A DNA stretch of 64,000 nucleotides, taken from positions 807,086 through 871,085 of the forward strand of contig CP060236.1 in the NCBI GenBank assembly GCA_023898725.1, given 5' to 3'. This document shows, piece after piece, positions 4,674 through 63,676 of the stretch (the stretch's first letter is position 1; the number at the start of each line of letters is the position of its first letter). The position numbers and the translations under genes were made by a program. This DNA is from Alphaproteobacteria bacterium (lineage in GTDB: Bacteria > Pseudomonadota > Alphaproteobacteria > JAUHZC01). Under the pieces are notes generated by a model. That model did no database searches. It had not been told where the DNA came from and saw only the letters and a program-made list of their open reading frames with translations.

Positions 4674-5312
4674 CTATGAGTGCTCTTTAGCTGTCAGCTG
4701 ATTAGCAAAAGAATGGTTTACATCTCGGTGATTTTCTTCATCCGCACGCACAGCCAAAACCAGCTCACGCAGACGCGCCCCTTTGGGTAATCCCCAGTAC
4801 GCGACAGCAATAGCAGGAGCAAGGGTGTTTGGAATTTGCCCACTATCTATTTCATGGAGATACTGTGTGTATGAAATAACAGCTTCTTCTTCAAGGTAGC
4901 CAACAATGCGGTGTGCTGTGCGCTCGGAGACAATATACAGGATGAAGTATGCTGTAAAAAAGAAAAATTGGACAAGGATGATCAAAAGGCGCTCAAACCA
5001 GGAAGGTTGAGCAATCTCAATGAATGTCATCAGATGCATGCGTTCATTTTCTGCTTCACTTAGTAAGATTTTAATCCAGCCGTTGTCATCGGCACACCGT
5101 CGTAAACTTTTGAGGTGTTGAAACATTCCCCCCACCATGCCTGGAACGGCTGCGACTGTTTCAAGAACAACAGCCCTATGACCGTAACGTTTTTTAAAAA
5201 ATGTGTCTGCACAAAAACGCAACATTTGCACAACCCAATACGCAAAAGAATCGCAGAAGCCCTGGCGCGGGTGGGAGGATTTCTGTTTCTTTGTGGGAAG
5301 AGATTTTTTCAT
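4674..5312 (-). CDS. aox: alternative oxidase (cyanide-insensitive di-iron ubiquinol oxidase, AOX)
   Basis: 212 aa carrying the diagnostic AOX di-iron motifs [34 protein letters not shown] and RADEENHRD. It is the size of a bacterial AOX with no mitochondrial presequence. The N-terminal ~25 residues may be over-extended. Confidence 0.75.
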
Positions 5313-12260: not shown

Positions 12261-13304
12261 GTGATAATAAATATAAAAATGAAATCATGCTACATTCTAA
12301 CGCTTCTTTTTGTTACTCACTTAGCGCTACAGGCTTCCTCGGCGCTTAGAAGTGAAGAGGAGGAATCCTCTTATGATCGATCACCAAGGGCAATACACTC
12401 TGACTCTGAAGCATTTTTTTCTGACCCCAGTGATAGTTCCTCTGGTGCGGAGGAACTATCTGAGCGGGCGTGCATGGAAAGAATTGACTCCCCTGATTTC
12501 CCTGGCAATCTGGGTTTATCGGAAAAAGCATGGCTGATTGAAAAACTTTTTTATCTCCCAGAACATGATAAAGGACCTTGGCTTCAGGCCATAGAAAGAG
12601 TGTATGCTGATGATTTTCCTGGTTCTTTGAGTCTGCACGAAAAGAACACAATAGCTCACCGTCTTGCTCTGTGTATTGTGAGCCGCTGTGAGCCCTATGA
12701 GTCTATGAGAGCTCGTCTGGATTGCTTGGTAAGAATTTATGCAAAAGATTTTCTTCCTCACTTCACCGCGCAACAAAAAAACACCTTGATCCACAATACG
12801 CTAGGGCTTCCAGGAGCAACGCAAGAGGGATATCGCTCGTGGCTCTCGTGGCAGCAAGATTTTTATGCCGAAAACTCTTCTTGGGGTTTGGGTCCAGAAG
12901 GGCAATTAGAGGTTATCAGGTGTATTACGCACACCACTATGTACTGTAAGATAGAGCACGTGCTTCCTTGCCTCAAAATTATGAGTGCTCCTGATTTTTT
13001 ACCCTATCTGACGCTGCATGAAAAACTGGCAGAACATCAAGGACTAAGAGTACTCAAAGTGCTTCATGAGGCATCAAAAATATCACCTGTTTTTTTGCGC
13101 TTTCTTACGAAGCACAGGTCATTTTTATTTAAGCCTATGCGAAACTCAGCCGAAGCAGTTGATTTTATTCGAACTCTCATGTTTTGTTACGATACTGTCG
13201 TCAGCCCAGTACTTATAACACCACAAAATCCAACGGGCAGAGTATTTTCTCGACCAGAGATATGGCCAACGCTCATTGAGTACCTTGGCGGTACACAAAG
13301 GTAG
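12261..13304 (+). CDS. hypothetical secreted protein with four internal ~45-aa repeats (DFPGxLxLxEK)
   Basis: Signal peptide (MKSCYILTLLFVTHLALQASSA), an acidic Ser-rich linker, then repeated DFPGNLGLSEKAWL / DFPGSLSLHEKNTI / DFLPHFTAQQKNTL / DFLPYLTLHEKLAE units. No known domain recognised. Confidence 0.5.
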   Translation: MIINIKMKSCYILTLLFVTHLALQASSALRSEEEESSYDRSPRAIHSDSEAFFSDPSDSSSGAEELSERACMERIDSPDFPGNLGLSEKAWLIEKLFYLPEHDKGPWLQAIERVYADDFPGSLSLHEKNTIAHRLALCIVSRCEPYESMRARLDCLVRIYAKDFLPHFTAQQKNTLIHNTLGLPGATQEGYRSWLSWQQDFYAENSSWGLGPEGQLEVIRCITHTTMYCKIEHVLPCLKIMSAPDFLPYLTLHEKLAEHQGLRVLKVLHEASKISPVFLRFLTKHRSFLFKPMRNSAEAVDFIRTLMFCYDTVVSPVLITPQNPTGRVFSRPEIWPTLIEYLGGTQR

Positions 13305-16218: not shown

Positions 16219-17739
16219 ATGAAAAAGATCATTAGCGGAACGTATGTAAGCCTATTTTTTGCGGCAAATGCCACGCTATTACTATCACATGTTTGGGGGT
16301 CGGATCAGCGTGCTGCAAATCCTGAGGCCCCCGAAACAGTTGTTCCTGGGTTATCTGGGATGGGATATACGGCTCCTCCTGATTCTGGCTTATTGGAACA
16401 ACCTCACGTCGATGTAGCTGCACGCCTTCTGACTCCAGATAGAAGCTCCTATGAGAGGTGGATGGATAATGTATATCATGCGCGCACTTTTTTGGGCATA
16501 GAGGCACGTGGTGCTGATGTCTCTCGGCTTGTTCGTATCCTTTCTGGATTGCCACCAGGGAGTGTTGAGGGGTGCATTGCCCACGCAGGCAGTCTAACGA
16601 CAGAAGACATGACGCCATCAAATCGGGTGGAAGTTATGCGCATTCTCTCCGGTATACAGCCGCTGCATCGTGACGATTTCGTTGCCAAGATCTGGAGGCT
16701 TTATCCACGCCTGGAGAAAGAAGAGCATGTAATGCACGCTCTTCTTACAACCCATAGACTGTACTCCCCGCATGCGCAGATGAGCAATGTTGATGATTTT
16801 ATTAATATGATTGAAGGTATTCGCCTCGATGGGGAAAGCCGAGAGGAGGCTATGGCTATTCTCTTAGAGCGCAGCCATGACGAACGCAAAAGCCGTGTGG
16901 CTCGTGTTTATGAGTATGTAGGTCTTTCACCATGGCATCATGGGTACGCCACCCGTGTCCTCGACATTCTTCGGTCTCCTGTTGGGCAAAATATTCTTCC
17001 TCCTCAAGAAAGACTGATAGATATGGCGGCTGACGGCATTGATGTCCATGTTTTGGGTCGAGATTCGGCTACGAAACGCGCGTATGAACTTGTTTGGGAT
17101 CATCAAAGAGGTCTTACAGAAGAAGCAATAAGTACCTCCTATGGCAATTTCTTGGAAACGATGGAATTATTGGAAGAGTCACGTCAGACTATGCTTCTGC
17201 AAGCTCTTGGTCTAATGCGTGCAGTCGGTCAGTCATTTGGTGGTCTTCTTGATATTGAAGACAAGATAACCTCTTTGGATATCAATATGTCTCCACATGA
17301 ATTTCTGGGGCGTCTATGGCACTTTGCCTTGCATTACCGTGACCCAAGAGGAGGAACTGTGGCAGAGCAAAAAGAAGCATTTTTGAGTGGACTGATAGAT
17401 GCAATAGAGAGTGATGGCCATCGCGTTTGTGTTGCCGGACAACTTCAGCGATTAGCCGTTAGTTTGTTTCAGGGGCGCCTTCCTGGTGTGGATATTGACG
17501 GCTTAGATGCCATGCAAGTGGCAACTGAAGTAAAGTCTGTTTGTGTTACTCCTGCTGATACGGCAATAATTGTTCTTGGGGCTTGGACTGCCTATCAAGA
17601 AGGGCTTCGTCATACCGCCACAGCTGTTGACCTAGAGCGGTTTGCCCATGAGTACAGAGTGCAAAACCCCGGGATACACCCTGATTCTTTTGCGGAAACT
17701 CTTATTGAGTTGCGTGATAGGTTACATCGTGAGATGTAA
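16219..17739 (+). CDS. hypothetical secreted protein (506 aa, mostly alpha-helical)
   Basis: Signal peptide (MKKIISGTYVSLFFAANATLLLSHVWG), long ORF with coherent codon usage and no recognisable domain. Confidence 0.5.
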   Translation: MKKIISGTYVSLFFAANATLLLSHVWGSDQRAANPEAPETVVPGLSGMGYTAPPDSGLLEQPHVDVAARLLTPDRSSYERWMDNVYHARTFLGIEARGADVSRLVRILSGLPPGSVEGCIAHAGSLTTEDMTPSNRVEVMRILSGIQPLHRDDFVAKIWRLYPRLEKEEHVMHALLTTHRLYSPHAQMSNVDDFINMIEGIRLDGESREEAMAILLERSHDERKSRVARVYEYVGLSPWHHGYATRVLDILRSPVGQNILPPQERLIDMAADGIDVHVLGRDSATKRAYELVWDHQRGLTEEAISTSYGNFLETMELLEESRQTMLLQALGLMRAVGQSFGGLLDIEDKITSLDINMSPHEFLGRLWHFALHYRDPRGGTVAEQKEAFLSGLIDAIESDGHRVCVAGQLQRLAVSLFQGRLPGVDIDGLDAMQVATEVKSVCVTPADTAIIVLGAWTAYQEGLRHTATAVDLERFAHEYRVQNPGIHPDSFAETLIELRDRLHREM

Positions 17740-39977: not shown

Positions 39978-40871
39978 ATGATTCCATTGAAAAAAAAATC
40001 ATATTTAATCAGAGTAATTTTATTATTATCCATAGGTGAAACTTCTTTTATTTCTGCCTGCGCCGAGAGCATTCTTGACGATAGTGTTGCCACACAAGCA
40101 GTTGGATGCTCAGAATATCCTGCTGTGTGGAATTCTTTTCCCAAAAAAATCAGGATGTGGTTACCAGGGGATCGCCCCCTGCATCGCGGACGGGAACTGT
40201 CTCAAAATAGTTTAATTCAGACGCTGAAGGATTTTCCAGACATTTCCTGGGATGACTTATCCCCCCATCAAAAGCGTTTAATTGGGTGTGCGCGTGATGC
40301 GGAAGTACGCTGGGCAGAGATGAATGCGCGCGCTTCCCAACGCAGTGTACTATCGGGGGCTGTTGCAGAAGGATTACTGCTTTCTGACGATGAATATGTG
40401 CGTCATGTAGCGCCAAATATCCCGCGATGGTTGCGCACGTGGCTGCCGAGCGATCTTCTCTTGAGTGCGCGAGGACCGCAGGCAGACAAGAACATGCTTC
40501 TTTCTGAATTGCGGCGTATATACAACCCTTCGCCTGAAAGCGTACATGAGGGTAGTAGCTTTTCGTGGGGTGCGCTAGACAAATTTCACAAAGATCGGAT
40601 TGAAAAACAAAAAAAACGTATGCAGAATATGCACAGACGCCAGAAACGCAAGAGTCGTAGGCAATTTGTTAGTCCCGGGCGTGCTTCTTTTTCTGGTAAA
40701 TCAAAAGCCTCCCATCGCGGTGTTTTGGGTCGAGGGTATTCTGTGCGCGCCTATCTTGCTATGACGGAAGAAGAAGATAGAGACAGTTTTTACGGTTATC
40801 AAGCCGATGAAGATAGCTCTGCTGCTGAGGCGTCCATAAATGGCAAAGAAAATAAAGAGCCTAGAGGATAG
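39978..40871 (+). CDS. hypothetical secreted protein with basic C-terminal tail
   Basis: Signal peptide (LIRVILLLSIGETSFISACA) and no recognisable domain. Confidence 0.4.
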   Translation: MIPLKKKSYLIRVILLLSIGETSFISACAESILDDSVATQAVGCSEYPAVWNSFPKKIRMWLPGDRPLHRGRELSQNSLIQTLKDFPDISWDDLSPHQKRLIGCARDAEVRWAEMNARASQRSVLSGAVAEGLLLSDDEYVRHVAPNIPRWLRTWLPSDLLLSARGPQADKNMLLSELRRIYNPSPESVHEGSSFSWGALDKFHKDRIEKQKKRMQNMHRRQKRKSRRQFVSPGRASFSGKSKASHRGVLGRGYSVRAYLAMTEEEDRDSFYGYQADEDSSAAEASINGKENKEPRG

Positions 40872-44400: not shown

Positions 44401-45663
44401 TCAGGTTTGCTCCCAAAGATCAGGTGATATAAGAGCATGTGGTGCGCGCGCGCGCCGTGTACGCTCGGCATCAAATAAGGCTGTTGGCATTACATACGCT
44501 TTTCCACTGTTGCTGCGCAGGACAACTCCTGCTTTATGTTGCTGTAGTTGCTGTTGGGGTGCTAAGTTGAGAGCATGCATCCCATTGCGCAAGGTGCGCT
44601 CAAATGCCTCGTTACTGGTCCGGCGTGGATTTGCGTTGTGAATAAGGCGACGAATGGCATCTGGGCTGAGGCTGTGAGGATCACCCTTCTCTGGGGAATA
44701 GTCAATTCCCATCCGGATAAAGCGATCCCCTAGGTTAATTTGCAGGACCCTTTCCATATGCCGTGATGTAATTTCCTGTGGGTTTAAGGTGCTTTGATAA
44801 CCATGTGGAGTATTAAGATATCCAACAGCGATCATTCCGAGGGAATCCCAGGAACACCCCGTTTCATCTTTGAACGCAAGGAGGGAGGGTAGGGCTGTGT
44901 CTGGAATTATAGGAACAATGTCACGCAAGCGCCTGGTCACATCACCACGGCTAACAATAGCACGTGATTTAAATAACCCTTTTGTCGCTGATGTCGAGGC
45001 AATCACATCAACCAAAGTATAATCGTCCCCGGGGTTTGATCGTGCTTTTCCAGAAGCAAAAAGGTATTCGGCATTAGTACCACGAATACGCGTATGAAAG
45101 TAAATAGGTTTTTCAATGGAGCTTAGATAAGCCTCGCCAAAAATTTTTTGAAGTGTCCGGGTGAGGCAATCCCTATCAAACACGTGCCTGGGAGGGAAAC
45201 ACAAAAACCCACTTTTGCGCTTTAATAAATCGGGAAGGTTGTTTCGTAATAAGTTTTCAACATCAGTCACAGTGCGGTATTTTCCATTATTTTTTCGTGA
45301 GAAAAAAGCAGCAGCAAGAAAACTACCTGCAAATGAGGCACCTGCTCCAGCAGAAAATAACTCACCAATAGGTAATCCTGCTGCTGCTTCAATATATCGC
45401 AACTCCTGAAGAGCTGAAAAGCTAGAAGTCAGACCCGGAGCAATATATAAGAGCTTGTTGATAACGCTTGGAACAAGAGGTTTTCCTGAATCTGGGGGTA
45501 GTACTGTTCTTTCAAGAGTGCTAAGCCCCCCTAAATGGACGTGCTCTGAGGAAAGTGCGGCTATTGCCATTGATGCGTTAATAGGATTCATAAATACCTG
45601 CAGATTGGTTGTTACCCAGAAAGCGAGTATTGTTAGAATAAGGACATTTTGAATAATAACCAT
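44401..45663 (-). CDS. hypothetical protein (N-terminal hydrophobic segment, 420 aa)
   Basis: Long ORF convergent with hflX and no confidently recognised domain. Patatin-like motifs were checked and are not convincing. Confidence 0.4.
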   Translation of the reverse strand: MVIIQNVLILTILAFWVTTNLQVFMNPINASMAIAALSSEHVHLGGLSTLERTVLPPDSGKPLVPSVINKLLYIAPGLTSSFSALQELRYIEAAAGLPIGELFSAGAGASFAGSFLAAAFFSRKNNGKYRTVTDVENLLRNNLPDLLKRKSGFLCFPPRHVFDRDCLTRTLQKIFGEAYLSSIEKPIYFHTRIRGTNAEYLFASGKARSNPGDDYTLVDVIASTSATKGLFKSRAIVSRGDVTRRLRDIVPIIPDTALPSLLAFKDETGCSWDSLGMIAVGYLNTPHGYQSTLNPQEITSRHMERVLQINLGDRFIRMGIDYSPEKGDPHSLSPDAIRRLIHNANPRRTSNEAFERTLRNGMHALNLAPQQQLQQHKAGVVLRSNSGKAYVMPTALFDAERTRRARAPHALISPDLWEQT

Positions 45664-46281: not shown

Positions 46282-47322
46282 TCACATCCAGTCATAGACA
46301 CCCAAGTTTTCCGCACCAGAGCCTTCGGCATCAGTTGCTGGTTCATACCCCCCTGAATTATCGAAACTGTTAAGGTCATCGAAATTACCAATATCAGAAG
46401 CATCAGGACTACCAAATTCTGGGATATTTGATCCGCCCCATTCATTGTTGTCAACGCTACCAACATCGGATCCACCAAAGTCTTGAAAATCATCGAATCC
46501 CCCAAAGTCCTGAAAATTATCAAGCCCCAATCCTTCATGTTTCTCACGAATAATTTGATTGTTTTGGGCAGCAAGATCTTGCATTTCTTGTTGTTCTTTT
46601 TTCTTTTGCTCTATTGCCGATTGACGTGCCCTCATCGTTTCTGCAATTTGTTCCGCCTGTTGCTTAGCAGAATTGATGGCTGCTGTGTACGCGGCCTTGT
46701 TTTTGTTTTCAACCATACGATTGAAGTTTGATATACGGTTATTGTAATACATAATTATTTTTGGAAGAAGCATCCCCTCTGTTACCTGTTTACTTTTTAA
46801 GAGTGCGTTCAGGTAGTTTTTTATCTGGTGGGGATCACAACTTTTGAGGGCCAAAGGAAGCTTTTCTTTTTTTGCACCCCAAGAACGAAATTTTGTGGAG
46901 CAAGCTGCACGTGATGTCTTGGAGGTGACACTGGGATGCTGTTGAGCATGCTGGATAGCCTTTGCTAAATTCAATCCCTGCAAGGGCATTGTTGGAAGTG
47001 TTGGGTACATGGTGTATGCTTCCCTTATACCCCCTGGCAGTGTAGGTGTTTCCATGTGTTTTATCTCTAGTTTGGGAGGTACCACATAGTTTGAGTGAAT
47101 GGGACCTTGACCCGAAGACTGTTGCATGACACTTCCAGAAGGCTGTCGGGCAAGTTGCCTATTTTGAGCAAAGCTCCCAGAGGGTTTCCGCACAAGTTGC
47201 CTCGTAGATGCAGGTTTCTTTTTTGCAAAAGGGTTCCATGCGGCATCACAGTGAGAGGCCGAAGTGAAAACAAATGACAGTGTGAGTACTTTTAGAATTT
47301 TTTTATTCATAGAATATACCAT
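46282..47322 (-). CDS. hypothetical secreted protein with central coiled-coil and acidic C-terminal DF/G-rich repeats
   Basis: Signal peptide (MNKKILKVLTLSFVFTSASHCDAA), a Gln/Lys-rich coiled-coil, and a C-terminus of DNFQDFGGFDDFQDFGGSDVGS... repeats. Confidence 0.5.
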   Translation of the reverse strand: MVYSMNKKILKVLTLSFVFTSASHCDAAWNPFAKKKPASTRQLVRKPSGSFAQNRQLARQPSGSVMQQSSGQGPIHSNYVVPPKLEIKHMETPTLPGGIREAYTMYPTLPTMPLQGLNLAKAIQHAQQHPSVTSKTSRAACSTKFRSWGAKKEKLPLALKSCDPHQIKNYLNALLKSKQVTEGMLLPKIIMYYNNRISNFNRMVENKNKAAYTAAINSAKQQAEQIAETMRARQSAIEQKKKEQQEMQDLAAQNNQIIREKHEGLGLDNFQDFGGFDDFQDFGGSDVGSVDNNEWGGSNIPEFGSPDASDIGNFDDLNSFDNSGGYEPATDAEGSGAENLGVYDWM

Positions 47323-59626: not shown

Positions 59627-59716
59627 GGATGGGTGGCCGAGCGGTTGAAGGCACCGGTCTTGAAAACCGGCGAGGGTTTGCGCCCTTCGTGGGTTCGAAT
59701 CCCACCCCATCCGCCA
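59627..59716 (+). tRNA. tRNA-Ser (anticodon TGA), long variable arm, CCA encoded
   Basis: Acceptor stem ggatggg/cccatcc, D-arm tggccgagcggttgaaggca, anticodon stem ccggt/accgg with loop cTTGAaa, variable arm cgagggtttgcgcccttcg, T-arm gtgggttcgaatcccac. Confidence 0.9.
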
Positions 59717-59757: not shown

Positions 59758-59976
59758 TTGGCTAAAGAAGACGCAATTGAGTTCAGTGGTATTGTTGAGG
59801 AGTTACTTCCTAATGCTATGTTTCGGGTAAAACTCGAAAATGGCCGTGAAATCACCGCTCATATTTCAGGGCGCATGCGTAAAAACCGCATCCGGGTCCT
59901 TGTTCAAGACAGGGTTACCATTGAGATGACACCCTATGATTTGACCCAAGGCCGAATTATTTTTCGCGAAAAATAA
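59758..59976 (+). CDS. infA: translation initiation factor IF-1
   Basis: 72 aa, [67 protein letters not shown]. Canonical InfA. Confidence 0.95.
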
Positions 59977-59993
59977 AACTGGGTCTACACCCC

Positions 59994-60173
59994 ATGTCAT
60001 CAGTTCCCCCTTTACAAAAATACTCCTCCTTGAAAAAATGTGTTATCTGTAAAAAAGAATACACAGAAATGACCTATGCTCCGTTTTGCTCAAAACGATG
60101 CAAGCTTATTGACTTGCATCGTTGGTTAGATGGTTCTTATAGTGTGCCAACAAATGAAAAAGAAGAGGAATAA
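59994..60173 (+). CDS. yacG: DNA gyrase inhibitor YacG (zinc-ribbon protein), 59 aa, below the ORF-track size cutoff
   Basis: Manual translation from ATG 59994 gives [52 protein letters not shown]..., matching the YacG pattern (C-x2-C...C-x3-C plus the RC.LIDL..W motif). Confidence 0.65.
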
Positions 60174-60484
60174 TTAGTCTATCTTTTACAGGAATTTTTT
60201 CCTAAGAACTGTTTTATGATTTCTTCGAATTAAGGGTGTGGATAACGCGCATGCTCCCCATGAGAAAAACCTGTGTCAAGGCAGAAAGTCAATAAAATCC
60301 CTAAAATACATCCTTTTAGTTATCCCCACAACCTGTGGATAAGGGTGGGGATATGTAGGGGGAGAAAATGAAAGCTTTAAGTTTTGCTTAACCTTTTATC
60401 CTAATGCTCAAAAATTGAGCATGCAGAAATTAGTAATTAATAATGCCTATTAAGTTCTTGTAAAAAAAATACACTTATTTTATT

Positions 60485-63400
60485 GTGATTTTCACAAAAA
60501 AATTGATGAGTACACTAATAATGACAAAAAACTTCGCATATCTTTTGTTTACTTCTGTTTTTTTACTGCCGATTTCTGCAAGCCAATCGCTACTTATCCC
60601 CGGTATGGACGCCTGTTATAATCAGGCATTGCTTGAATCTGAAATTGAGGCTGGTGAAGATAGCACCAAGGACTTGTATGATGCTCTGCGACCATCTCGT
60701 CTACCTGTTGCCCAGCAAGTTGCAAATCTAACTGTGCGAACAGCAGAATGGTGTGGCGGTTATGCAGATGGAACATATCTTTTTACATGCTTTGATCGTG
60801 ATATGTCTCAGGATTCTCGTCATGGACACGCAAATGCCCTGGATGCGGTTGCCTTGTGGTTGTTTCGTGAACCAGGTGAGCCCATCACCCGTGCGACAAG
60901 TCCATCTTCCCGTATAGATGTGCAAAAAATGGGAAAAATTGTGCGTATTGTTCTCGATTTATTTGCCGGTCACATAAAAGAAGAAGATCTGTCCCTGGTT
61001 TTGGGTCGTGTGCTAGAGAAAAGTATCAAAAAGCCTATTTCTTTTGAGGTTTTGCAGTCTTATGAGCTTTATCGTCGACTTGATTACGCTTATGATCATC
61101 TCAAAAATATGGCGCAAGAACTTGATCCTGACGAAGTCAGTGAGTACGAGGATGAGCAAGATCGCCTGCTCAGGCTATTCAGATCTGAGAGATATACACC
61201 AGAAAGTTTTCTCAAGATTACAAAAAAAGCAGACATGTGGAGCAAAGAAAAATCTACCTTTTTCCCTTATGATCCTTCTGTAAAAATTCTTAATTTTATA
61301 AGACTGCGTGATCGCAAAACGACTTTCGAGAAACTTTTGCAGCATATGAAGTCTCCATGGTCTCATGGTGATTATGATCATGATGCAATTGATAAGACTC
61401 AAGCGCGTTATGAGGAAATCACCTCTGAGTATTCTTCATACGGTCGATTTCTTACCACTATCAACACCACACAAACTCACCGTCAGTATGGGGCTCATTT
61501 GTTGCTGCATAATATTTGCGTAGCCGCACACGAAGCAAAAGCACGTGGTCGCGAAGCGCAAATTGCGCTTTTACAAGTTCTCGCTGCCTTTGCCGTGCAT
61601 CGAGCCACAGAACCAAAAGATCTAGAGAAATTTTATGATGAGCTTGGGCTTCGCATGACCTTTTCTGGAAAATCGGCTTTTAGTATGGATGACTATAATA
61701 ATCTTACAAGTAGAATCACTCAGTCTCCAGAGGCGTATCGTGATCTTAGTGAAGAGGAACGTCAAAATTTATCAACATTCTCAGTGTTGGTTTCTGCGTC
61801 AATGCTTCCTCTCAAAACTTACGATAGGGTGACGGTTAGAAGCCCTCTTTTGCAGGAGCGGACATTTTCAAATTGCTATGAAGTCGCCTTTGAAAACTTT
61901 TTGCGTATTATGTGCATGAGCTTTGTTCCGGGTCGTGGTTGGATTTCAGACACACGTCTTTTTCCTGATCACTCTCTGGTACAGAAGTATTTTGCTGAGG
62001 AGGCTTTTGGAACAGTGCGAGCAGCGAATACAGAAGATGCATCAAATACTTTTGCAACAATGATTTCGGGAATTCCAAATGTTCGGTACGTTAAAAAAGG
62101 TTCTGAAGTAATACCATCAGTGCTCAACACACTCTATTTATTAAGTACGATATGGTGCCTTGATGAGCCGGAAGAATCAGATGATGAAGAATCAGATGCG
62201 ACAGAACTCATCACCGGTGCATTTAAGTACATTGAGAATGGAATCAACAGGCATTTTCTGCCATATGGAAAGAGCATTTCACTGCGTGCTGAAACTGATC
62301 TTTTTGAAGGAAGAGGCGACTCTGACAGCGTACATGTAACTGTAATGGAGGAGGAAACCCCTGTGCAAGAAGGGGTGATGCATATATATGAAAAGCACGC
62401 TGAAACAAAGGTGACCACACCCTTTAAGGATAGTGATGATTGGCGGACACTCTTGATTGCACATACAAAAAAAATATGGGAAGCCAGTGATGATTGTCCT
62501 TTGGAATTTGTAAGCACCCTTAGTGCAGAACAGATAGATACAATGGGGGAATCTGTGCCATTGAATGTTTTGCGTACTTTTGTGGACAAATCGAACATGC
62601 ATGTTTTAGACGTGATGGTTGCACAAGTTTCCACTCTCGTGCGGGGGCTGCAGGATGAGCATACCCATGAATATGCCAAACGTATGCTAAGGAAGATAGC
62701 AACCACTGTTGAAAGACAGAGTGACGGGCACACATCAATGGTTTTTACAGAAAAACTACGTGCCGGGATTAAGGAGAATGTGATCCCGCTAGACCTTCTA
62801 TCCTTTTTGGTTGACGCCTGTCCAGATGTTGCAAAAGTTTTTGCAAATGGATGGGAAGATTTCTTTCAAAGTCCTTTTTATAAAGCATGTATTAATAGGG
62901 ATGAGGAATTATTATTAATAATGAATAAAGGATTTGAAAAAGAAAAAGGTACTCTTTTTCTGTCACACTATATTTACGGGAGTGACGGGAATTCTTTGAG
63001 TGATGATGTTCTATGGGGGATTGAAAAACTATCTCATATTTATGGACTTTATTTAACGAATAGTTTTGCTATATTACCGAGTAAACTCGATCATGTAATG
63101 CATTCTCTACAAAAATTGAAAAATCTAGGGATGGCTACATTAGCGGTTTCATCAGAAATTTTCGATGATAGAGATTTGCTCGCCTATTTTGCAACGAGAT
63201 TACCAAATGCTGAAAAAACTTCCTACCAGATTGAATGTGCAGGTGAAAATCGTTCAGCAAAAATAAACTCGTGGGAAATTTGCGCACGTATGCAGAAAGA
63301 AAACCCTTTTTTACGGCTACACGTTTCGGGAAATAGAGAGCAAATAATGCTTGTTGCTCGGGCCCTGGCGTCTTACGGATGTATTGATGGAAACGATTAT

Positions 63401-63676
63401 ACCTTGCATAAAAGATCGGGAGTGTCATTATCCTTCGTTGCCTATACGAAAGATTTGCGCACAACAATAGCTTCTGAACAAGAGGCAGCAGGTGGGGAAG
63501 AAGCCTACAGAGAAAAACTTCGCAGTGGTTTTTATGAGGATCAGTATCCAGGCGTATATGCCTTGTATACAGATTCATACGCAGCAAGAGGCTTTCCTGT
63601 TGTGGACGAATCCCTTTTTGCAACCAGAGAAAGAGCCGCGAGTCTATCAGCCGCTGCTGAGGTCGATGACGTGTAG
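60485..63676 (+). CDS. hypothetical large secreted protein (1063 aa), no recognisable domain
   Basis: Signal-peptide-like N-terminus (MSTLIMTKNFAYLLFTSVFLLPISASQS) and an uninterrupted 3.2-kb ORF with uniform composition. No catalytic motifs identified by eye. Confidence 0.55.
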   Translation: MIFTKKLMSTLIMTKNFAYLLFTSVFLLPISASQSLLIPGMDACYNQALLESEIEAGEDSTKDLYDALRPSRLPVAQQVANLTVRTAEWCGGYADGTYLFTCFDRDMSQDSRHGHANALDAVALWLFREPGEPITRATSPSSRIDVQKMGKIVRIVLDLFAGHIKEEDLSLVLGRVLEKSIKKPISFEVLQSYELYRRLDYAYDHLKNMAQELDPDEVSEYEDEQDRLLRLFRSERYTPESFLKITKKADMWSKEKSTFFPYDPSVKILNFIRLRDRKTTFEKLLQHMKSPWSHGDYDHDAIDKTQARYEEITSEYSSYGRFLTTINTTQTHRQYGAHLLLHNICVAAHEAKARGREAQIALLQVLAAFAVHRATEPKDLEKFYDELGLRMTFSGKSAFSMDDYNNLTSRITQSPEAYRDLSEEERQNLSTFSVLVSASMLPLKTYDRVTVRSPLLQERTFSNCYEVAFENFLRIMCMSFVPGRGWISDTRLFPDHSLVQKYFAEEAFGTVRAANTEDASNTFATMISGIPNVRYVKKGSEVIPSVLNTLYLLSTIWCLDEPEESDDEESDATELITGAFKYIENGINRHFLPYGKSISLRAETDLFEGRGDSDSVHVTVMEEETPVQEGVMHIYEKHAETKVTTPFKDSDDWRTLLIAHTKKIWEASDDCPLEFVSTLSAEQIDTMGESVPLNVLRTFVDKSNMHVLDVMVAQVSTLVRGLQDEHTHEYAKRMLRKIATTVERQSDGHTSMVFTEKLRAGIKENVIPLDLLSFLVDACPDVAKVFANGWEDFFQSPFYKACINRDEELLLIMNKGFEKEKGTLFLSHYIYGSDGNSLSDDVLWGIEKLSHIYGLYLTNSFAILPSKLDHVMHSLQKLKNLGMATLAVSSEIFDDRDLLAYFATRLPNAEKTSYQIECAGENRSAKINSWEICARMQKENPFLRLHVSGNREQIMLVARALASYGCIDGNDYTLHKRSGVSLSFVAYTKDLRTTIASEQEAAGGEEAYREKLRSGFYEDQYPGVYALYTDSYAARGFPVVDESLFATRERAASLSAAAEVDDV

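Follow-up and report, generated by a model that had tools for sequence, protein, structure and literature searches.

A near-singleton protein with a predicted Sec signal peptide and a conserved central module, encoded between yacG and rpsU on an alphaproteobacterial contig

Positions 807,086 to 871,085 of contig CP060236.1 (GenBank assembly GCA_023898725.1), a 64-kb stretch from an Alphaproteobacteria bacterium referred to here as the window, carry on the plus strand a long gene at 60485..63676 that lacks close relatives. This orphan is a near-singleton among ~15 billion proteins, and the reading that we tentatively prefer, with somewhat less than even confidence, is of a native, lineage-restricted, Sec-exported soluble protein of the envelope or host interface, whose conserved central module is possibly a thiol-dependent core. 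The reading draws on a signal peptide in all three family members, the lack of any other transmembrane segment in the orphan and the absence of a match to a cytoplasmic enzyme. It also draws on the significant homology of the module, native codon usage, ankyrin (ANK) repeats in one relative (P0003), purifying selection in the lineage of another (P0002), and a window rich in exported lineage-specific proteins. Finally, Cys452, Glu454 and Asn459 of the module do not vary in the family, and a helix is predicted to begin at the Cys. What we infer from these observations is the export of the protein, where it ends up, host targeting and any catalysis.

The maximal open reading frame (ORF) of the gene, 60485..63676 (+), encodes 1063 aa from a GTG, while the publicly annotated coding sequence, 60521..63676 (+), starts at the ATG at 60521 and encodes 1051 aa (USO01239.1, titled ‘MAG: hypothetical protein H6849_04035 [Alphaproteobacteria bacterium]’, where MAG denotes a metagenome-assembled genome). 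Residue numbers throughout refer to the 1051-aa form.

The isolation of the orphan in sequence space is extreme. An exhaustive phmmer search of 1.84 billion cluster representatives, standing for ~15e9 proteins, returned the orphan itself and only P0002 (E 6.9e-8, 24% identity, query residues 361-557), and a word-indexed search of 5.8e9 clusters returned the orphan alone. With one distant relative cluster in the whole library, the suggestion of the initial annotation, made from the sequence without database searches, that the gene is lineage-specific was well founded. BLASTP aligned P0002 and the orphan at 24% identity (E 6e-15), and hhalign limited the homology to residues 351-544 (probability 97%, E 1.3e-10). 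These residues define a shared module of ~190 aa (61571..62152, +), the sole region of the orphan with detectable relatives; none were found by these searches for residues 1-350 or 545-1051, the latter including the C-terminal half of the gene at 62207..63676 (+). Scans of metagenomes and of IMG/VR, with both the family alignment and the orphan, found no further members.

The module is common to the orphan and three proteins, at 24-27% identity: P0002 (MDP3533027.1, 906 aa), P0003 (MDP3532361.1, 1022 aa) and P0004 (MDP1724605.1). All three derive from ‘Alphaproteobacteria bacterium’ MAGs, GCA_030696155.1 and GCA_030680745.1; P0003 is a 30%-identical paralogue of P0002 in the same MAG, and P0004 is a 98%-identical orthologue of P0002 in the second. 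The homology between the orphan, P0002 and P0003 is significant in these sequence comparisons, and together they represent an unnamed new family, in which the blocks NT[QE]DA[RS]N and PN[VI].Y[VL][KR] of the module are invariant. The relatives resemble the orphan in having a Sec-type signal peptide, a large size (0.9-1.05 thousand amino acids) and a centrally placed module with its characteristic motif, but only the module is homologous. P0002 and P0003 share an N-terminal domain that is highly conserved between them (…DHVASFIQ.LFPSFD..NFIPNQI…) and ankyrin or ankyrin-like C-termini, neither of which is present in the orphan. In P0003, the repeats are recognized by PF12796 (8.5e-8) and by matches to designed ankyrin repeat proteins (DARPins) in the Protein Data Bank (PDB), whereas no ANK repeats (PF12796, PF00023 or PF13606) were found in the orphan, even when fragments were searched to E<=10. 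Directly 3′ of the module lies an acidic linker, LDEPEESDDEESDATE (residues 547-562; 62159..62206, +); an analogous insert occurs in P0002, with none in P0003.

The near-identity of P0002 and P0004 allows selection to be gauged. The ratio of nonsynonymous to synonymous substitution rates (dN/dS) between them amounts to 0.127 for the whole gene and 0.061 for the module, compared with 0.02-0.06 for three flanking housekeeping genes. These values indicate purifying selection, somewhat relaxed, on the P0002 lineage; the orphan itself has no orthologue.

The genomic contexts of P0002 and P0003 are unrelated to that of the orphan, and each gene stands alone among housekeeping and orphan genes. Their loci (L034, L117 and L035) adjoin several ORFs that lack Pfam matches, and those MAGs therefore carry a similar load of orphan genes. 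P0003 also adjoins a Lipase_3 protein and a Porin_4 protein.

Export of the orphan is predicted from its N-terminus, which reads MTK, then NFAYLLFTSVFLLPI, then SAS followed by QS. The n-region is basic, the h-region spans 15 residues and positions -3 and -1 are occupied by small residues, as in a Sec signal peptide cleaved by signal peptidase I (MTKNFAYLLFTSVFLLPISAS before QS; 60521..60583, +). The assignment was made by rule, from sequence inspection and hydropathy, rather than with a trained predictor, and on those terms the N-terminus qualifies as a signal peptide. The segment is the sole hydrophobic one in the hydropathy profile, with no other transmembrane segment, and no lipobox Cys occurs in it. 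Starting translation at the GTG at 60485 or the ATG at 60506 would merely lengthen the n-region, which would then include KK. Equivalent signal peptides are found in P0002 (cleavage between …VFAHA and EP) and P0003 (between …NHAFS and EL), and the feature is also kept in P0004. The signal peptide proposed in the initial annotation is thus upheld by its n/h/c layout, the residues at -3 and -1 and a single hydropathy peak.

The remainder of the protein is acidic (118 Lys and Arg versus 157 Asp and Glu in the mature form) and contains 13 Cys, with no internal repeats detected by self-BLAST. Neither the whole protein nor its C-terminal fragments matched an autotransporter β-barrel in Pfam (PF03797 or similar), and a low-confidence structural model places helices and β/α units, not a barrel, at the C-terminus, which ends …AAAEVDDV. 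The features of RTX and type I toxins are also missing, given the lack of internal repeats, the lack of a Pfam match and the presence of a Sec signal. By these sequence features, the orphan is neither an autotransporter, nor an RTX protein, nor a lipoprotein.

Under the reading that we prefer, the orphan would be a soluble, acidic protein of 1051 aa that crosses the inner membrane by Sec, is cut by signal peptidase I after SAS21, and acts outside the cytoplasm, whether in the periplasm, at the cell surface or after release at the host interface. It would not be a cytoplasmic housekeeping enzyme, and its unique N- and C-terminal regions would confer target specificity around the module. The ANK repeats of P0003 are compatible with an interaction with the host.

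The main rival to this reading is a periplasmic or envelope factor that works for the bacterium itself and never reaches a host; it could, for example, be a scaffold, help to maintain the envelope or belong to a developmental form. We regard it as possible, if rather doubtful. A Sec signal peptide guarantees delivery to the periplasm and nothing further, and the orphan has no autotransporter barrel, RTX repeats or type IV-like basic C-terminus; its native codon usage and housekeeping surroundings also suit such a role. An instructive precedent is RARP-1 of Rickettsia, which possesses a Sec signal and ankyrin repeats and was first taken for a secreted effector, then shown to be periplasmic, from where it still supports invasion of host cells (bioRxiv 10.1101/2022.02.23.481736). 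A Sec signal combined with eukaryote-like repeats does not, therefore, imply secretion into the host. Like the orphan, RARP-1 is a lineage-specific alphaproteobacterial protein that starts with a Sec signal and is not annotated as an enzyme, and its layout of signal peptide and C-terminal ANK repeats is that of P0003. The two share no sequence similarity, however, the orphan has no detectable ANK repeats, and the long disordered region of RARP-1 differs from the largely helical structure predicted for the orphan, so the comparison is by analogy only. Against a purely periplasmic role, the orphan is extremely restricted and fast-diverging, with unique N- and C-terminal halves, a pattern expected more of interface proteins than of the core machinery of the envelope. 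P0003 also has ankyrin repeats of a eukaryote-like kind, although they are no proof of host targeting.

Periplasmic delivery and action at the host interface are combined in Holospora obtusa, the infectious form of which stores a 63-kDa protein, PRP1, and an 89-kDa invasion-tip protein in the periplasm, to be exposed or released to the host at infection (PMC9866348). These proteins are large, novel in sequence and equipped with a putative signal peptide, as is the orphan, and they belong to a protist-associated alphaproteobacterium. No homology between them and the orphan was detected, the exhaustive search having recovered only P0002. By analogy, an orphan exported by Sec could plausibly work in a similar way.

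In sequence, the orphan is uncharacterised and nearly unique, but as a kind of protein, exported and without close relatives in the small genome of an alphaproteobacterium, it is familiar; nothing was found that points to a new mechanism. Were the orphan to reach a host, it would bring to light an effector family not seen before, from a hardly sampled, small-genome lineage of alphaproteobacteria, with Cys452 as a defined residue to mutate. It opens no long-standing question and is unsurprising within symbiont genomics. What the analysis mainly brings out is a true near-singleton, the failure of the argument for a tRNA-linked island (discussed below), and a genome in which exported orphans are numerous, the present one being the largest in the window.

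What the module might do is suggested by the motif F449-S-N-C452-Y-E454-V-A-F-E-N459 (61865..61897, +; alignments A1 and A2), which is invariant in the family as the pattern F-[SA]-[ND]-C-x-E-x4-N. Cys452 (codon 61874..61876), Glu454 and Asn459 are identical in the three distinct sequences, and a low-confidence model (pLDDT, the predicted local distance difference test score, below 50) places Cys452 where a helix starts after a β-hairpin. Cys452 is a candidate nucleophile. In all three proteins, MAFFT also aligned an ‘x-H-A’ motif at +167 to +182 from the Cys; it follows a β-hairpin-like stretch and sits after the acidic insert, and in the orphan its His is H626. When the similarity of the His region was tested on its own by hhalign, it was not significant (probability 0.14%, E 0.43). 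A papain-like Cys/His dyad was accordingly downgraded to speculation, since the His region is outside the significant alignment.

Our preferred guess is that the module may form a thiol-dependent (papain-like) catalytic or binding core. The resemblance to papain-like (clan CA-type) protease and deubiquitinase effectors lies in the invariant Cys after a small or polar residue, at a predicted helix start following a β-hairpin, and in the ‘x-H-A’ motif ~170-180 residues past the Cys, again after a β-hairpin, in all three proteins. On the other side, profile searches of Pfam, NCBIfam and the PDB gave no match to the orphan, the alignment of the His region is not significant, and no third catalytic residue could be identified. 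The likeness is one of resemblance rather than established membership. A bolder proposal, which we consider improbable, sees in the module the catalytic core of a hitherto unrecognised family of Sec-exported thiol enzymes (proteases, deubiquitinases or transferases), used on host targets by poorly sampled, probably protist-associated alphaproteobacteria, with lineage-specific targeting domains fused alongside. Such targeting domains may be the ankyrin repeats of P0003 and the unique helical and β/α regions of the orphan.

Profile and structure searches yielded no named family. Pfam, NCBIfam and PADLOC returned no families, even at E<=10, for the orphan, its fragments or the family alignment, and the PADLOC models of anti-phage defence were likewise empty for P0002 and P0003. 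No PDB sequence matched the orphan below E=0.25, and a profile search of the PDB also gave nothing. The statement of the initial annotation that no domain could be recognized therefore stands, and the homology to a housekeeping enzyme family that it named as grounds for abandoning its proposal did not appear in any of the profile or sequence searches. The structure search that it recommended was run and identified no fold. AlphaFold returned a pLDDT of 37.8 for the orphan alone and 38.8 for the core modelled with the three-sequence alignment, and Foldseek with the full-length model against the PDB reached template modelling (TM) scores of ~0.1, to helical-repeat proteins, a result considered meaningless. 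In these low-confidence models, the orphan is mostly α-helical, with alternating β/α structure predicted, again at low confidence, at 63062..63445 (residues 848-975). A divergent leucine-rich repeat-like reading of residues 848-975, made by eye, was rejected for want of profile support.

Several considerations weigh against the reading that we favour, an exported protein with a possible thiol-dependent core. The candidate catalytic His, H626, falls outside the significant alignment, and residues called invariant in just three distinct sequences carry little weight. No fold was obtained from either poor model or from Foldseek. The signal peptide was judged by rule, localisation and activity are predictions from sequence, and the selection figures belong to the P0002 lineage, there being no orthologue of the orphan for comparison. 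Only contig size (1,107,460 bp) and gene content point to a host-associated lifestyle, and no secretion system came to light among the genes of the window.

That the orphan is a real gene can be stated plainly. It is the longest ORF of the window, as the initial annotation had remarked, well ahead of the runners-up at 626, 568 and 565 aa, and 1063 stop-free codons would be expected by chance, from the base composition of the ORF itself, with a probability of ~3e-31. Its guanine-cytosine (GC) content by codon position follows the order GC1>GC2>GC3 (0.52/0.39/0.34), as in other genes of the window, and its synonymous codon log-likelihood is -1.08 per codon, against a window range of -1.02 to -1.22, the comparison set being the other 43 window ORFs scored. 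These data leave a decaying or non-functional ORF, whether a relic or an annotation artefact, as an explanation that we find hardly credible. It would account for the missing orthologue, the very low AlphaFold confidence and the absence, on inspection of the sequence, of a clear Shine-Dalgarno sequence before any candidate start. It sits badly with the open frame, the typical GC periodicity and codon usage, the intact signal peptide, a module conserved across distant organisms and the purifying selection in the P0002 lineage, as well as with the independent assembly of the identical contig from two samples.

The location of the gene raises the question of its origin. The orphan sits between yacG and rpsU, and a tRNA-Ser(TGA) gene at 59627..59716 ends 769 bp before its GTG, with infA and yacG in between. 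The neighbours have strong Pfam matches (YacG, PF03884 at 7e-15; initiation factor IF-1, PF01176; ribosomal protein S21, PF01165 at 4e-17), so the setting described in the initial annotation, with yacG upstream, rpsU downstream and a tRNA gene about 0.8 kb away, is correct. The inference drawn there, of a typical tRNA-linked site for acquired virulence genes, does not hold. A horizontally acquired toxin, effector or adhesin carried as island cargo at tRNA-Ser is, in our estimation, very unlikely, even though the tRNA is near, neither the word-indexed nor the phmmer search found orthologues elsewhere, and the composition of the gene is shifted. The orphan has a GC content of 0.416, compared with a window mean of 0.445 (standard deviation, SD, 0.020), which is the lowest of its neighbourhood and falls in the 3rd percentile of windows. 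Its dinucleotide δ* is at the 93rd percentile, and its di- and tetranucleotide signatures together span the 92nd-93rd. This deviation of ~1.3 SD is nevertheless mild and not diagnostic, and far below that of a native-looking repeat cluster at 53-57 kb, and the codon usage of the orphan is native.

The remaining evidence also runs counter to an island. Besides the intervening infA and yacG, no second copy of the 25-nt tRNA-Ser 3′ end, and thus no attachment-site-like repeat, occurs in the window with <=3 mismatches allowed. The tRNA was the sole match of an Rfam scan of 59.4-64 kb. Pfam annotation of the window neighbours and of the 10 kb downstream showed no integrase, transposase or phage gene, and scans of IMG/VR yielded no relatives. 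Downstream of the orphan, including the 10 kb past the window, the genes are housekeeping only, encoding S21, DUF819, MlaD, NDUFA12, RimP, NusA and IF-2. The only relatives are in another alphaproteobacterium, and RNase D of the two organisms, that of the orphan and that of P0002, is just 32% identical, so that a module identity of 24-27% would fit vertical inheritance from long ago in a clade with few sampled members. The orphan as a recognisably acquired, tRNA-linked gene is not supported, and the native, lineage-restricted protein proposed above accords better with these observations.

Comparison with other loci was made at a distance. At 80 metagenomic yacG loci, whose YacG is at most 66% identical, no relative was detected when the orphan, P0002 and P0003 served as tblastn queries; universal conservation in this syntenic position, the other outcome that the initial annotation named as refuting its proposal, was therefore not encountered. 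At the same loci, yacG was never followed by rpsU in the flanks that were fetched, so yacG-rpsU is not a conserved unit for an insertion to break. A scan of GTDB representatives with TrhO, the product of a neighbouring gene, gave matches of <=53% identity, mostly from Gammaproteobacteria, with the source genome not among them. The gap between infA and yacG is 17 bp here (59758..60173), compared with ~1.8-1.9 kb from infA to yacG at ~30 distant metagenomic loci (L041-L115), which suggests that intervening genes were lost in the source genome.

The AT-rich intergenic region between yacG and the orphan (311 bp; 60174..60484, +) contains several potential regulatory features. Upstream of the orphan, a single promoter-like site was found, TTGAGC-18-AATAAT (60415..60444), and its -35 element is overlapped by a perfect 19-bp palindrome, ATGCTCAAAAATTGAGCAT (60404..60422), which may be an operator. 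Two perfect DnaA boxes, TTATCCACA, lie on the minus strand at 60237-60245 and 60334-60342, and a box with one mismatch lies at 60320-60328. All three fall within 106 bp, and perfect DnaA boxes number only four in the whole 64 kb. One of the boxes is enclosed by a hairpin with arms TATCCCCAC (60321-60329) and GTGGGGATA (60345-60353). A replication origin at this cluster was considered and rejected because the GC skew is positive throughout the window and over the next 10 kb; the cluster could instead place the promoter under DnaA control or serve as a site of titration.

Elsewhere, the window mostly encodes housekeeping functions, including mraZ/mraW, penicillin-binding proteins, tricarboxylic acid cycle enzymes, tRNA synthetases and ribosomal proteins, together with an outer membrane β-barrel protein, five major facilitator superfamily (MFS) transporters and a ComEC-like protein. 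Every Pfam-less ORF examined, at least 12 in the 64 kb, has a signal-peptide-like N-terminus. The orphan is thus the biggest member of a common class and no isolated oddity. Signal-peptide-like or lipoprotein-like N-termini were seen, for example, in the Pfam-less ORFs at 12261..13304, 16219..17739, 39978..40871 and 46282..47322.

Six consecutive Pfam-less ORFs occupy 49852..57155, a region with a tandem triplication (period 1007 bp) and with coding repeats of 102 bp, and the repeat cluster at 53-57 kb, with a GC content of 0.55-0.60, is the strongest compositional outlier of the window. The first part, 49852..53328, encodes three Pfam-less signal-peptide proteins of 427, 298 and 291 aa, of which the first contains a 225-bp internal duplication and the second has an N-terminal domain (…NSRYGL…) in common with the triplicated family. 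The triplication itself spans 53517..56530 with a period of 1007 bp, its copies starting at 53517, 54524 and 55531. Copies 1 and 2 encode identical 193-aa signal-peptide proteins (53528..54109 and 54535..55116), and copy 3 (55542..57155) encodes a 537-aa protein whose first 76 aa are shared at 95% identity and which goes on to 6-7 copies of the 102-bp (34-aa) repeat and a tract of AQ-rich 9-bp repeats. A 36-nt near-palindrome, CCATAATCCCCAGAAAACTTTTTGTGGGGATTATGG, occurs at 54268..54303 and 55275..55310, in the intergenic part of each 1007-bp unit, and by its sequence looks like a terminator or a repetitive extragenic palindromic (REP)-like hairpin. Its stem resembles the hairpin upstream of the orphan (ATCCCCA…TGGGGAT).

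Two further genes of the window, both on the minus strand, deserve mention. Patatin-like proteins are common effectors of intracellular bacteria, and a 420-aa protein with a hydrophobic N-terminus, encoded at 44401..45663, has a weak patatin-like match (PF01734, 26.6 bits versus a cutoff of 27.7). At 4674..5312 lies a gene for an alternative oxidase (PF01786, E 4.6e-84), an enzyme that is uncommon in bacteria and was therefore unexpected in a genome represented by a 1.1-Mb contig.

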